Source: Opitutales bacterium (GTDB lineage: Bacteria > Verrucomicrobiota > Verrucomicrobiia > Opitutales > UBA9783). From it: a stretch of DNA of 28,938 bases. The stretch is from positions 1-28,938 of the forward strand of contig JBKSMP010000015.1 of the NCBI GenBank assembly GCA_046881885.1. The letters are read 5' to 3'. The position numbers and the translations under genes were made by a program. Under the pieces are notes generated by a model, which searched no databases, had not been told where the DNA came from, and worked only from the letters and a program-made list of their open reading frames with translations. Shown here piece by piece: positions 17,826-20,784 of this stretch; positions within the stretch are counted from its first letter, which is position 1; each line of letters begins with the position of its first letter.

Positions 17826-18218
17826 ATGATGAAACTTAAACTTGAACCTAATATTCTTATTACCAAATACTCTAAGGAGGGCGTATTTGATGAAGTTATA
17901 GATCAAGCAAAGGTTAAAATCTCTCAAGGCCTTTTAACTCCTCACTTGACGTTGCGTTCATCAACTCAAGTCCCGGAAGAAAAGAGCGAGGACAGTAAGG
18001 GGTTCTTCAATACAAATCCGTCAAATGTTTTCATAAACAAATTCCTATGTTTGACACAAAAAAGCTTGGATTTTTCGGGCAAAAAAAAGGCATTATTAAT
18101 ACCTGCTTATAGTTTGTTTTCTCAGGAAAGTTTTTATCTTGTTTCCGCTTTCCGGCCTTTGTTTAAGCAATGTTCAAGTTTAAGTTCATCGATAGTTATA
18201 AATCCAAACACCAATTAA
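17826..18218 (+). CDS. Hypothetical protein (weakly supported ORF)
   Basis: ATG 17826/17829 are the only in-frame Met codons. The stop at 18218 is 1 nt before the next ATG, a tight operon-like packing. Ser-rich with no recognisable motif and no SD. The region could instead be a long 5' leader. Confidence 0.3.
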   Translation: MMKLKLEPNILITKYSKEGVFDEVIDQAKVKISQGLLTPHLTLRSSTQVPEEKSEDSKGFFNTNPSNVFINKFLCLTQKSLDFSGKKKALLIPAYSLFSQESFYLVSAFRPLFKQCSSLSSSIVINPNTN

Positions 18219-18219
18219 T

Positions 18220-18405
18220 ATGTCTTATCCACTTGCATTTTTATTTTTGTTACTTTACCTGCTGATGTGCCAAATCCTACCGTTAAAAGCGGAGGTTAAA
18301 GGAGGTTATTTAGAGCACAATCCGCAACAGAACAAGATTTTTAGAGATAATTTCGATAAAAACTCAATCGATACGTCATCACAAACGAAGGGAAGCTATG
18401 AATAA
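18220..18405 (+). CDS. Small hypothetical protein with signal/TM-like N-terminus
   Basis: 61 aa, MSYPLAFLFLLLYLLMCQILPLKA followed by a hydrophilic tail. Its stop overlaps the FlgN-like start (ATGAATAA, 8-nt overlap), suggesting coupling. Confidence 0.35.
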   Translation: MSYPLAFLFLLLYLLMCQILPLKAEVKGGYLEHNPQQNKIFRDNFDKNSIDTSSQTKGSYE

Positions 18406-18874
18406 AAGAAAGAAGCATGCATTTAATTTTGAGCAGTTGGCAGAAGCTTTTCGTAAAGAAATCGAAGAATATGGTGCGCTTTTGATCCTCATTTATGAAC
18501 AACAAAACTGTTTGGCGGAACACAATCCGATTTCGTTGTTGAAAGCGACATCAAAGATCGAAGCACAATTACCTGCGAACCAGCTTGCTACTGCAGATCG
18601 GACAGCTTTTATGCAGCAATTAGCGGAATTACATGGATGCGAAGAAATACAACTCAACGAACTTCAAAATTTTGTTCCTGAAGAAGTAAAATCGCTCTTT
18701 AAAGCCCTTGTCGATGAGATTGTTGCGTTACGTTCACGTATCAAAAGTAAGACACAAGTTCAGCAAAAATTGCTAGGGCAAGCACAAATGATCAACTCCT
18801 CCGTGCTTCAGCAAGTTTTTCCAGGAAAAAATGGCCATCAAGCCATGCTCTCAAAAATCCGTGAAATCTTATGA
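18398..18874 (+). CDS. FlgN-like helical protein (putative T3S export chaperone)
   Basis: 158 aa and all-helical in appearance, Leu/Gln/Glu-rich. The layout F..L...F..EIEEY..LL.L...Q...L, then a central region, then a C-terminal K.Q.QQKLL.QAQ is reminiscent of the FlgN family (PF05130). AAGGGAAG SD present. Sits directly upstream of csrA, as flgN/fliW do in flagellar late operons. Assigned from memory only. Confidence 0.5.
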   Translation: MNKRKKHAFNFEQLAEAFRKEIEEYGALLILIYEQQNCLAEHNPISLLKATSKIEAQLPANQLATADRTAFMQQLAELHGCEEIQLNELQNFVPEEVKSLFKALVDEIVALRSRIKSKTQVQQKLLGQAQMINSSVLQQVFPGKNGHQAMLSKIREIL

Positions 18875-18907
18875 AACAAACTATTTACACTCAACCGAAA
18901 GGACACT

Positions 18908-19084
18908 ATGCTCGTACTCAGTAGAAAGTTAGATGAATCCATTATCGTTGTTTCTCCAAGTGGGGAAATAATGGAAATTAAAATCACAAAAATCGAAGAA
19001 AACCGCACAAAAGTCGGTATCGAAGCTCCTACGAACTTCAAAATCTTCCGTAAAGAAGTTTTTGATTCAATTAATGGGAAATAA
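18908..19084 (+). CDS. csrA: Carbon storage regulator CsrA (RNA-binding translational regulator); not in the supplied ORF track because it is under 60 aa
   Basis: My translation is MLVLSRKLDESIIVVSPSGEIMEIKITKIEENRTKVGIEAPTNFKIFRKEVFDSINGK (58 aa). It matches the CsrA pattern MLxLxRKxxEsIxI...I.V....g..vriGI.AP....I.R.E(v/i). SD AAAGGA lies 5 nt upstream. Stop TAA at 19082-19084. Confidence 0.85.
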   Translation: MLVLSRKLDESIIVVSPSGEIMEIKITKIEENRTKVGIEAPTNFKIFRKEVFDSINGK

Positions 19085-19095
19085 AGCGGAAAGAT

Positions 19096-20784
19096 ATGAA
19101 CGTTAATGGTCCCCTGAGTTTTCATGAAAGATTTGATAACGCAATAAAAGGAATAGAAGGATTATGTCAAAAAAAACTTGAAGGCTCCAAGGTTTCGCCA
19201 ATATCCAAAAAAGCTTGCGAACGCATCATAAGTTTATGTAAAAAATACAATAATTCCCTCTATTCTTTACAAGGCCATGATAGGCGTGTTGTGGCAAGGG
19301 CTTATGTTAAGCAGGAAGTAGAAAAAACCATTAAAGAGGTTGGTAGTAATAGTTTGATTAGGGCCAATATTCGCTTATTTCAAAAAAGAAAATATAAAAA
19401 AGATATCGCTACAAATTTTAATACAAAAGCTTTAGATTTAAATTTCGTTAACACCTTAAAAGGAAAAGATTTAAAGGCATTTTTCAAAGTATTCAAAAGT
19501 GAGCTACTTAATCCTGACAACAAAGAAATCTTTAACAACCTCCCGCCGGAAGCCCAAAAAGCTTTCATTGAGCAGAATAAAGGCGATGTAGAATTTCTAT
19601 CTACCTTCTCGAATGTTTATAAAGAGGAGTTGTTGAAACCGGAAAATAAAGATCTTTTTAATGCCCTCCCTGGAGATGTGCAAATACAATTTTGTAAAAC
19701 AAACGACTTAGATCATAAGGATTATTTGGATTTAAATAATCATGAAGTTGACCAAGCATTTGTAAAAGAATATAAAAAGGAGCTACTTAATCCCGACAAC
19801 AAAACCTTTTTCAACAGCCTCCCAATAGAAGCCAAAAAAGCTTTTATTGAGCAGAATAAAGGCGATGTAGAATTTCTATCTACCTTCTCGAATATTTATA
19901 AAGAAGAGTTGGCATATGTTTCTTTTTCTAGTAATCCTATGCCCGAACTATTAACAGTATTTAAAGATGCTATAGTCTCCAACCGAGACAAAATCATAGA
20001 AAATCCAACCATCCTCGCTTATGCGGATAAGGCTACACTAGAAAGTATTATTGAACCTATTATAAAAGGAGATGAAGAATTAGGTAAAGCACTTATTCAA
20101 AGCTTCCTCACTATTGATAAAAATTATTTACAAAATCTTACTTTGATGTTTAATATTGAATTTAGCAAAAACACAAAGGATATATTTTTATCCATGTTGC
20201 AAAATGAGAATGTCAATCAAAATGAAGATGTAATTACAAGTAATCAACTTTTTAAAGATATAGAACGAGGTTATACTTTTGAATTCACTTGTCCTAGTGG
20301 TAAAAAGGTTGTTATAAACAACAACAATAATAAAACTTCTCAAGGAAATTTTTTATCAAAAAGAGAAATTTTTGATGAAATCAAAAAACAAATTAATTCA
20401 TCTTTTTTTATGGAAGGACGTACAGATAAAGAAGTAGAAAAAGATTTAAATAGTTTAGCTGATTTTATTGCTAATTGCGGAGGACAAGATTTAATGAAAA
20501 ATCTAATACCTAACAGTGTTAATTGTATACATTGGGAAGGCAATGGGTGCCCTTTTTATAAAGCACACCATGATGGGAAGAGACTAACAATAGAAGTTCA
20601 TACACAAGGATCTGGAGATAAAAATAATATATCGTTTGGTTCAAAAGTAGGTTTCGTAAAGCTCAAAACAAAAGCGACTGTAGCATTTTATTATGAAAAT
20701 TCAATCGAAGCTTGCAAAGGGAAAGCCTCCAATATCGAAGTAAACCAATTTGAGCAAGAAATTGGCGATGTGACTTTTTTATAA
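19096..20784 (+). CDS. Large AT-rich repeat-containing hypothetical protein (candidate secreted substrate/effector)
   Basis: 562-codon ORF starting 11 nt after csrA. No signal peptide. Internal ELL(N/K)P(D/E)NK..F(N)xLP...(K/Q).F repeats. Asn/Lys-rich, with sampled 60-nt lines at about 18-28% GC. No known domain recognised. Confidence 0.75.
   Translation: MNVNGPLSFHERFDNAIKGIEGLCQKKLEGSKVSPISKKACERIISLCKKYNNSLYSLQGHDRRVVARAYVKQEVEKTIKEVGSNSLIRANIRLFQKRKYKKDIATNFNTKALDLNFVNTLKGKDLKAFFKVFKSELLNPDNKEIFNNLPPEAQKAFIEQNKGDVEFLSTFSNVYKEELLKPENKDLFNALPGDVQIQFCKTNDLDHKDYLDLNNHEVDQAFVKEYKKELLNPDNKTFFNSLPIEAKKAFIEQNKGDVEFLSTFSNIYKEELAYVSFSSNPMPELLTVFKDAIVSNRDKIIENPTILAYADKATLESIIEPIIKGDEELGKALIQSFLTIDKNYLQNLTLMFNIEFSKNTKDIFLSMLQNENVNQNEDVITSNQLFKDIERGYTFEFTCPSGKKVVINNNNNKTSQGNFLSKREIFDEIKKQINSSFFMEGRTDKEVEKDLNSLADFIANCGGQDLMKNLIPNSVNCIHWEGNGCPFYKAHHDGKRLTIEVHTQGSGDKNNISFGSKVGFVKLKTKATVAFYYENSIEACKGKASNIEVNQFEQEIGDVTFL
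19501..19911 (+). repeat. In-frame direct repeat inside the 562-aa ORF (two ~132-nt copies 279 nt apart, plus a degenerate third copy between them)
   Basis: Copy 1 is 19501-19632 and copy 2 is 19780-19911. They share a 48-nt identical block, attgagcagaataaaggcgatgtagaatttctatctaccttctcgaat, at 19567-19614. A degenerate copy lies around 19621-19700. The offset of 279 nt equals 93 codons. Confidence 0.9.

Follow-up and report, generated by a model that had tools for sequence, protein, structure and literature searches.

A flagellar flgN-csrA pair and a hypervariable gene beside sctV in an Opitutales genome

When the genes for a secretion chaperone and for the regulator CsrA lie beside the gene for an injectisome export gate, do they form a switch that serves the injectisome, or have they another origin? 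The question is raised by a contig of 28,938 bp from an Opitutales metagenome-assembled genome (MAG; locus-tag prefix ACLRFH_), analysed in its complete length and referred to here as the window. Five open reading frames (ORFs) on the + strand, with junctions of 1, -8, 33 and 11 nt, lie next to sctV and encode products of 130 and 61 aa, a FlgN-like protein, CsrA and a protein of 562 aa, the product of orfX. The answer favoured here, with a probability of about 0.62, is that this string is the remnant of an eroded flagellar operon in which flgN and csrA have been kept and the fast-changing orfX has been added, and that its position beside sctV is incidental.

Two known systems bear on the question. 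In the FliW-CsrA-flagellin partner switch, found in Bacillus subtilis, Campylobacter and Borrelia, the genes lie in a late operon of the order flgM-flgN-flgK-flgL-fliW-csrA-hag, and FliW is believed to be what controls CsrA in bacteria other than Gammaproteobacteria. In enteropathogenic Escherichia coli the injectisome chaperone CesT sequesters CsrA after effector delivery. The original prediction for this locus, made from the DNA alone, was built on both: FlgN would sense secretion and antagonise CsrA, as FliW or CesT does, CsrA would block translation of the 562-aa protein, taken to be an effector, and the latter, chaperoned by FlgN, would leave the cell by way of the SctV injectisome. The parts were recognised correctly, including the five ORFs and their junctions (the first product, given as 131 aa, has 130 when counted from the ATG at 17826); their origin was misread and the tie to the injectisome is unsupported.

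Origin of the string

The string can be read against the flagellar operon of related bacteria. A scan of GTDB genomes with a FlgN alignment returned 18 loci, from MAGs of gut, rumen and termite Opitutales/Puniceicoccales, and a metagenome scan added seven more, mostly short, which left the picture unchanged; the loci are numbered with an L, and L007 (CAZIZB01) is of the same species as the window. In L009 (UBA1183) a divergent glucosaminidase gene is followed by flgF-flgG-flgA-flgH-flgI-flgJ-flgN-flgK-flgL-fliW-csrA, in which each gene is confirmed by Pfam and flgJ is the rod-binding part. The same operon is present through csrA in L014 and L030, while in L016, L029 and L034 the portion near flgN is present as far as the contigs reach, those of L016 and L029 ending within flgK. 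The window retains the glucosaminidase gene (61% identical to the L009 gene beside flgF), flgN and csrA in the order and orientation of L009, and has lost flgG, flgH, flgI and flgJ as well as flgK, flgL and fliW. The string thus descends from a flagellar operon and is not, as had been supposed, an invention of the injectisome. Its features in the window are as follows.

17119 to 17757, - strand: secreted glucosaminidase with a domain like the C-terminal one of FlgJ (PF01832, E 4e-9), divergent from the string
17826 to 18218, + strand: orf130, degenerate flgF relic, 130 aa, assigned by position, tblastn and hhalign
18220 to 18405, + strand: orf61, relic of the flgA signal peptide, 61 aa, matching the FlgA N-terminus
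18398 to 18874, + strand: flgN orthologue, 158 aa, assigned by PF05130, orthology and predicted fold
18908 to 19084, + strand: csrA, short form, 58 aa (PF02599)
19096 to 20784, + strand: orfX (ACLRFH_02210), 562 aa, helical repeats and a C-terminal alpha/beta domain

The glucosaminidase gene, whose product was rightly described in the original prediction as a peptidoglycan hydrolase, adjoined the flagellar operon ancestrally, and its ratio of non-synonymous to synonymous substitution rates (dN/dS) is 0.06-0.13. The first two ORFs of the string are what is left of flgF and flgA. orf130 occupies the position of flgF and keeps the FlgF segment LLTPHL...TQVP...KGFF; L009 FlgF matches the orf130 orthologue of L008 in tblastn (E 1e-6), and hhalign aligns orf130 with FlgF at a probability of 85% (E 5.8e-6). 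The ORF is intact in six genomes with a dN/dS of 0.46-0.66 overall and 0.60-0.66 among the window, L007 and L008. orf61 corresponds to the N-terminus of FlgA in L009, L014 and L016 (MSYPLAFLFLLLYLLMCQILPLKAE in the window, MPYPIAFIFILLYLFMCHVLPLHAG in L016) and overlaps the start of flgN by 8 nt. Its dN/dS is 0.16-0.44 among the window, L007 and L008, but its first 25 codons (18220-18294) differ between the window and L025 by 10 synonymous and no non-synonymous changes, while the remainder drifts. This suggests that orf61 is a retained small membrane peptide and not a plain pseudogene. The earlier statement that the window holds no flagellar structural gene is therefore correct for intact genes and incorrect for these two relics. 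That fliW is missing was also stated, and it holds: tblastn with the clade's own FliW finds the gene in L009, L014 and L030 only, and not in the window.

flgN and csrA after the loss of flagellar genes

The 158-aa protein, predicted to be FlgN-like, is a true FlgN orthologue. It matches PF05130 with an E-value of 4.4e-4 and 21.1 bits, below the gathering score of 30.5, over 133 of the 147 profile positions, and many of its orthologues have precomputed matches to the same family. The protein is 74% identical to the FlgN encoded within the L009 flagellar operon, and orthologues in L009, L014, L016, L029 and L030 (66-79% identical) sit in a flgJ-flgN-flgK-flgL context, unlike the window gene, which has no adjoining flgK, flgL or flgM. 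The AlphaFold2 (AF2) model (predicted local distance difference test score, pLDDT, 86.9) has an elongated, all-helical fold with three long helices. The structure in the PDB with the highest template-modelling (TM) score to this model is Pseudomonas aeruginosa FlgN (2fup; probability 1.00, TM 0.60/0.73, root-mean-square deviation 3.1 Å), with a Foldseek E-value that is non-significant. Sequence searches of the PDB with the FlgN profile and with L009 FlgN found no FlgN, because the family is too divergent.

The identification of CsrA is secure by Pfam (PF02599, E 2.6e-16, 59.8 bits, cut-off 27). The protein scores 50 bits against the NCBIfam equivalog models, under their cut-offs of 70-73, and so is a divergent member; it is 67% identical to the L009 copy. 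An N-terminal MLVLSRK and a C-terminal KIFRKEVF are conserved in all 20 of 20 orthologues, and the corresponding MLxLxRK strand and (I/V)xR(K/E)E(I/V) motif with its key arginine are presumably the RNA-binding residues, as in E. coli CsrA. The length of the protein follows its context: CsrA has 80-87 aa where it is encoded beside fliW, whereas the window clade and L017-L023 have forms of 57-59 aa, the window copy of 58 aa lacking the C-terminal extension of the fliW-adjacent forms. The csrA Shine-Dalgarno sequence is AAAGGAC, as had been noted. No GGA-rich decoy RNA of the CsrB/RsmZ type was found in the window, where there is neither a corresponding Rfam family nor an intergenic GGA cluster.

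Compared with the FliW-CsrA switch, the window module has the same CsrA family and the same kind of ancestry, its relatives keeping the order flgN-flgK-flgL-fliW-csrA, and GGA motifs overlap the Shine-Dalgarno sequence of the next gene. By contrast, fliW, flgK and flgL are missing from the window, CsrA has no C-terminal extension, the gene that follows csrA is not a flagellin gene, and no antagonist of CsrA can be identified.

Both retained genes are under strong purifying selection. Among the window, L007 and L008 the dN/dS is 0.025-0.038 for flgN and 0.06-0.16 for csrA, and flgN gives 0.044 against the more distant L025 (synonymous divergence, dS, above 1). This selection is as strong as that on sctV, with a dN/dS of 0.02-0.04 (0.02-0.037 among the same three genomes). 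In L017-L023 and a termite clade, where flgN likewise adjoins csrA, the values are 0.04-0.13 for flgN and 0.065-0.26 for csrA. The low ratios in these collapsed lineages show that the flgN-csrA pair is functional in genomes that have no flgK, flgL or fliW at the locus. The idea that the whole string is dead debris, a set of non-functional pseudogenes awaiting deletion, could draw on the dN/dS of about 0.6 for orf130 and on the hypervariability of orfX. It is nevertheless extremely improbable, given a flgN ratio of 0.025-0.044 at dS up to 1.5, the 0.06-0.16 of csrA, ORFs that are all intact in at least six genomes and the convergent retention of the pair in several lineages.

The collapse of the operon appears to have happened more than once. 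In a neighbour-joining tree of FlgN the flagellar loci L009, L014 and L016 fall among the collapsed ones, and the collapsed lineages differ in their relics: the window clade has those of flgF and flgA, L017-L023 have none, L015 has a flgF relic together with a tail-bearing CsrA, and in the termite clade no glucosaminidase gene adjoins flgN-csrA. The mixed tree and the differing relics argue that deletions sparing flgN and csrA took place independently at least twice, and probably four times.

The locus L015, from a Hadza gut, has flgN and csrA 320 nt apart (10480-10796) with no recognisable gene between them. Its CsrA has 89 aa, with a tail that shares about 70% identity with the CsrA tail of the flagellated L009, and its FlgN keeps the tyrosine motif described below; it looks like a more recent, or partial, collapse.

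FlgN itself has changed in the collapsed lineages. Near the C-terminus of the proteins from flagellar operons, and of that from L015, is the sequence P-x-x-K-(L/I/T/F)-Y-N-(K/E)-(H/K)-(G/K), an xLYNKxG tyrosine motif. In the window clade FlgN has lost this motif through a five-residue deletion, and the remaining collapsed lineages have other residues in its place. In Salmonella, Tyr-122 of FlgN is critical for docking to FlhA (PMC8527033). The pattern is suggestive only of FlgN having lost a tyrosine that would match this docking residue.

Salmonella FlgN is the chaperone of FlgK and FlgL and, when free, promotes translation of flgM. Its regulation of FlgM translation, cited in PMC4054197, offers a precedent for a FlgN that is kept without its clients. 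The window protein belongs to the same family by Pfam, predicted fold and orthology. It differs in that the clients are missing from its locus and in the deletion of the tyrosine motif throughout the window clade.

The flagellar paralogues of Chlamydiae are an example of reductive flagellar loss with retained relic genes. Such loss is also known from the degenerate flagella of Actinobacteria (PMC10746217). The locus resembles these cases in that structural genes were deleted piecemeal with few survivors. It is unlike them in that the non-structural genes flgN and csrA survive repeatedly and under strong selection, with a new gene, itself hypervariable, joined to them.

Loss of the CsrA tail and of the tyrosine motif in FlgN is specific to the collapsed lineages, flgF and flgA are present only as truncated fragments at their ancestral position, and no flagellar gene was found within 10 kb on either side in 14 collapsed loci. 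These observations speak against an organism that is still flagellated, with a rearranged operon whose flgK, flgL, fliW and rod and ring genes lie elsewhere, so that FlgN and CsrA would do their ordinary flagellar jobs. Such an arrangement would accord with the strong purifying selection on flgN and csrA and with the flagella of close relatives, and the evidence covers the locus, not the whole genome; on balance it is regarded as unlikely.

In several lineages of gut Verrucomicrobiota, then, fliW and flagellar structural genes have been deleted at the locus while csrA and flgN were kept side by side and strongly selected. These lineages are a natural experiment in CsrA control without FliW and decoy RNAs, and in a flagellar chaperone without its clients.

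orfX and its possible control by CsrA

What is new at the locus is the gene that follows csrA. The features in question are these.

19077 to 19090, + strand: GGA pair, a candidate CsrA site in the translation-initiation region of orfX
19477 to 19911, + strand: direct repeat pair inside orfX, 156 nt, 85% identical, spacing 279 nt
20786 to 21997: gene of an SDF-family transporter, downstream of orfX

The orfX protein matches no family in Pfam or NCBIfam, and seven homologues likewise have no match in Pfam; only 14 relatives were found among 1.84 billion representative proteins. Its AF2 model (pLDDT 80.5) consists of a helical-repeat array (residues 9-390) and an alpha/beta domain (394-562), and has no match among PDB folds.

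Linkage to csrA is consistent within the window clade: in all five loci with orfX (L001, L003, L025, L027 and L028) the gene lies downstream of csrA, directly so except in L027, where the gap is 1.1 kb. In the distant loci L018, L020 and L022 an ORF of 565-586 aa begins 21-28 nt past csrA. hhalign places the profiles of the two clades in collinear alignment over 129 columns (probability 87%, E 3.8e-6), and these proteins are remote homologues of orfX. L015 has fragments of orfX only, and no orfX-like gene follows csrA in L017, L019, L021, L023 or the termite clade. The flagellated relatives have neither an orfX-like gene nor a flagellin gene after csrA, so the description of orfX as occupying the position of hag does not hold for this clade.

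orfX is a hypervariable cassette. Between the window and L001 the flanks are 98% and 96% identical while the proteins encoded between them are 46-58% identical, and nucleotide identity to L001 and L027 (96-98%) breaks exactly at the stop codons of csrA and of the SDF-family transporter gene (window 19084-20798), the DNA between them being unalignable. Strains differ in the number of repeat copies and in the length of the protein (461-893 aa).

orfX was also considered as a diverged flgK, flgL or flagellin gene. This was rejected: there is no similarity, Pfam finds no flagellin domain in the protein, and the gene lies after csrA and not between flgN and csrA.

The two GGA motifs reported ahead of orfX, at 19077-19079 and 19088-19090 (17 and 6 nt upstream of the orfX start codon at 19096), are present; one falls within the coding part of csrA, while the other forms the orfX Shine-Dalgarno sequence. 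Two or more GGA between -30 and -1 occur in two of 30 window genes, base composition alone predicting about 4%. Eight orfX leaders (-40 to +12) contain 2, 4, 1, 2, 2, 0, 3 and 3 GGA, a mean of about 2.1 against 0.62 in 29 other window genes, and at least two are found in 6/8 orfX leaders and in 4/29 of the background genes, although the leaders are related to one another and their counts are not independent. The layout GGA-N6-8-GGA-N5-7-ATG recurs in L025 and L028 despite saturated dS and despite the insertion, in both, of a terminator-like hairpin after csrA. This enrichment, together with the position of orfX after csrA in two distant clades, makes it plausible from sequence that CsrA controls, and may repress, orfX.

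A history that would join these observations can be outlined. A late flagellar operon, from flgF through csrA with its divergent glucosaminidase gene, was hit by reductive deletions in a gut Opitutales lineage. The tail-less CsrA dimer would still be a GGA-binding translational repressor, with orfX, which carries the GGA pair at its Shine-Dalgarno sequence, as the nearest target. FlgN would have been retained for a role independent of FlgK and FlgL, either regulatory, as for free Salmonella FlgN, or as a partner or chaperone in the three-gene unit. A rearrangement at the level of the species would then have placed the string beside sctY-sctV.

Several points weigh against the reading of the string as an eroded operon with CsrA-controlled orfX. 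orf130 and orf61 stay open in six genomes across a dS of about 0.8-1.5, and this, together with the strictly conserved signal peptide of orf61, means that they are not plain pseudogenes. The tree behind the repeated collapse is of a single gene, by neighbour joining and without support values. The tyrosine of the FlgN motif is only presumed to be equivalent to Salmonella Tyr-122, from an alignment to the Salmonella protein that is not statistically significant. The leader of orfX in L018 is the one with no GGA, and five orfX leaders folded no better as RNA than shuffled controls and formed no hairpin that presents GGA. Several lineages keep flgN-csrA without orfX, so orfX cannot explain the retention of the pair. 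Finally, flagellar content was read at the locus, and the genome could encode flgK, flgL and fliW at other sites.

Two further observations concern possible CsrA targets. Between csrA and orfX, L025 (9941-10000) and L028 (2343-2402) have a hairpin rich in GC, CCACGGGG-TTT-CCCCGTGG, with a T-rich tail after it. The window lacks this hairpin, which may act as a terminator or attenuator and so uncouple orfX from csrA. In the window, the gene at 1209-1829 on the - strand (leader to 1860) is the only other one with two GGA in its leader, in a GGAGGA Shine-Dalgarno sequence. GGA is clustered more densely here (8 in 150 nt) than anywhere else on that strand, and the encoded 206-aa product is of no family; the gene could be a second target of CsrA, or the motifs a chance occurrence.

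The sctV neighbourhood

The genes on the other side of the glucosaminidase gene gave rise to the injectisome interpretation.

14656 to 15000, + strand: gene of an SctY-like tetratricopeptide repeat (TPR) chaperone (SctY NCBIfam model and TPR Pfam matches)
14997 to 17087, + strand: sctV, FHIPEP protein of the injectisome export gate (NCBIfam TIGR01399)
17089 to 17115: terminator-like hairpin where sctV and the glucosaminidase gene converge, with a 12-bp stem and then a T-rich tail

Both were named correctly. The FHIPEP protein scores 922 bits against TIGR01399 (SctV; cut-off 692). Its identification as flagellar FlhA was rejected, with 669 bits against the FlhA model and a cut-off of 772. The chaperone, which had been called YscY-like, has TPR matches in Pfam and reaches 67.9 bits with the SctY model, just below the cut-off of 70. 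The stop codon of the sctY-like gene overlaps the start of sctV, and its dN/dS is 0.03-0.11. No other injectisome core gene, and no CesT-family (PF05932) protein, was found in the window. The strong selection on sctV and the presence of CesT-family chaperones in relatives indicate that an injectisome probably exists in the genome.

The original prediction was to be refuted if the string was not conserved with type III secretion genes, and the adjacency is in fact confined to the species group of the window. The window, L007, L008 and L027 are the only loci where sctY-sctV directly adjoins the string. L025 and L028, whose FlgN is 87% identical, have no sctV within 10 kb of the string, and their block from the glucosaminidase gene to orfX is flanked by HPr/FtsK and MraY/Mur-ligase genes. 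In L021 and L023 sctY-sctV is about 5 kb from the string, inverted and alone among the housekeeping genes proS, gltX and rsmD. In the window sctV ends at the terminator-like hairpin and a convergent gene separates it from the string. The hairpin, the convergent gene and the non-conserved adjacency together indicate that the string is a transcription unit separate from sctV, and that the adjacency is incidental, with no functional link.

This counts against the secretion-sensing switch of the original prediction. That model has features of the locus in its favour: a flgN-csrA-orfX unit in two distant clades, very strong selection on flgN although its known clients have gone from the locus, orfX leaders enriched in GGA, an encoded injectisome gate with CesT-family chaperones in relatives, and many orfX homologues that begin with long S/T/N/Q-rich segments without a signal peptide. 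The absence of fliW and the loss of the CsrA tail also count for it, since a new control of CsrA would be needed. Set against these, sctV is its own transcription unit without conserved adjacency, and flgN-csrA occurs without orfX in L017, L019, L021, L023 and the termite clade. The window FlgN, moreover, lacks the tyrosine motif by which, in flagellar systems, FlgN would dock to the FHIPEP gate, and the N-terminus of the window orfX protein is predicted to be helical from residue 9 and is not Ser-rich. The model is therefore considered improbable. The likeness to the CesT-CsrA switch is one of concept, in that a chaperone of the type III secretion kind is encoded beside CsrA in a genome with an injectisome gate. 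It differs in that the chaperone is an orthologue of flagellar FlgN and not a CesT-family protein, and in that linkage to the injectisome is not conserved.

A related and rather doubtful idea is that, after loss of the flagellum, FlgN replaced FliW as the partner of tail-less CsrA, and that the pair gates the translation of orfX, whose product would leave through the injectisome. If true, a flagellar checkpoint would have been rewired to a non-flagellar secretion system.

For the reading preferred here, that of an eroded flagellar operon, the interest that remains is the repeated and strongly selected survival of flgN and tail-less csrA and their coupling to a new, fast-evolving gene. The locus also shows that a chaperone gene and csrA can come to lie beside sctV by operon decay followed by rearrangement, which calls for caution when functions are assigned from gene context in MAGs.

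Some further observations concern secretion genes. A gene for a CesT-family (PF05932) class I type III secretion chaperone lies close to the module in L025 (1348-1773, - strand), and the flagellated L009 has a 30%-identical tblastn match to this protein at 19616-19984 (- strand), which implies that members of this family have injectisome effectors alongside flagella. In the window a type II secretion cluster, complete and on the same strand as sctY-sctV, occupies 3792-14389; it comprises gspG, three or four genes of minor pseudopilins, L/M-like genes, gspD, gspE and gspF, and the gap between gspF and sctY is only 267 nt.

Rfam and tRNA scans of the whole window gave no match, and a promoter scan of the window gave nothing beyond the expectation from shuffled sequence. 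An element of about 140 bp at the end of the contig (28798-28936), which has no Rfam or tRNA match, recurs in L025 as an inverted pair (5358-5499 and 7797-7920) at 72-75% identity. One of the L025 copies is just outside the relocated glucosaminidase-flgN-csrA block, and the repeat may have been involved in the rearrangements. The genes nrdD and nrdG of the anaerobic ribonucleotide reductase, at 25131-28162 of the window, fit a strict anaerobe of the gut.

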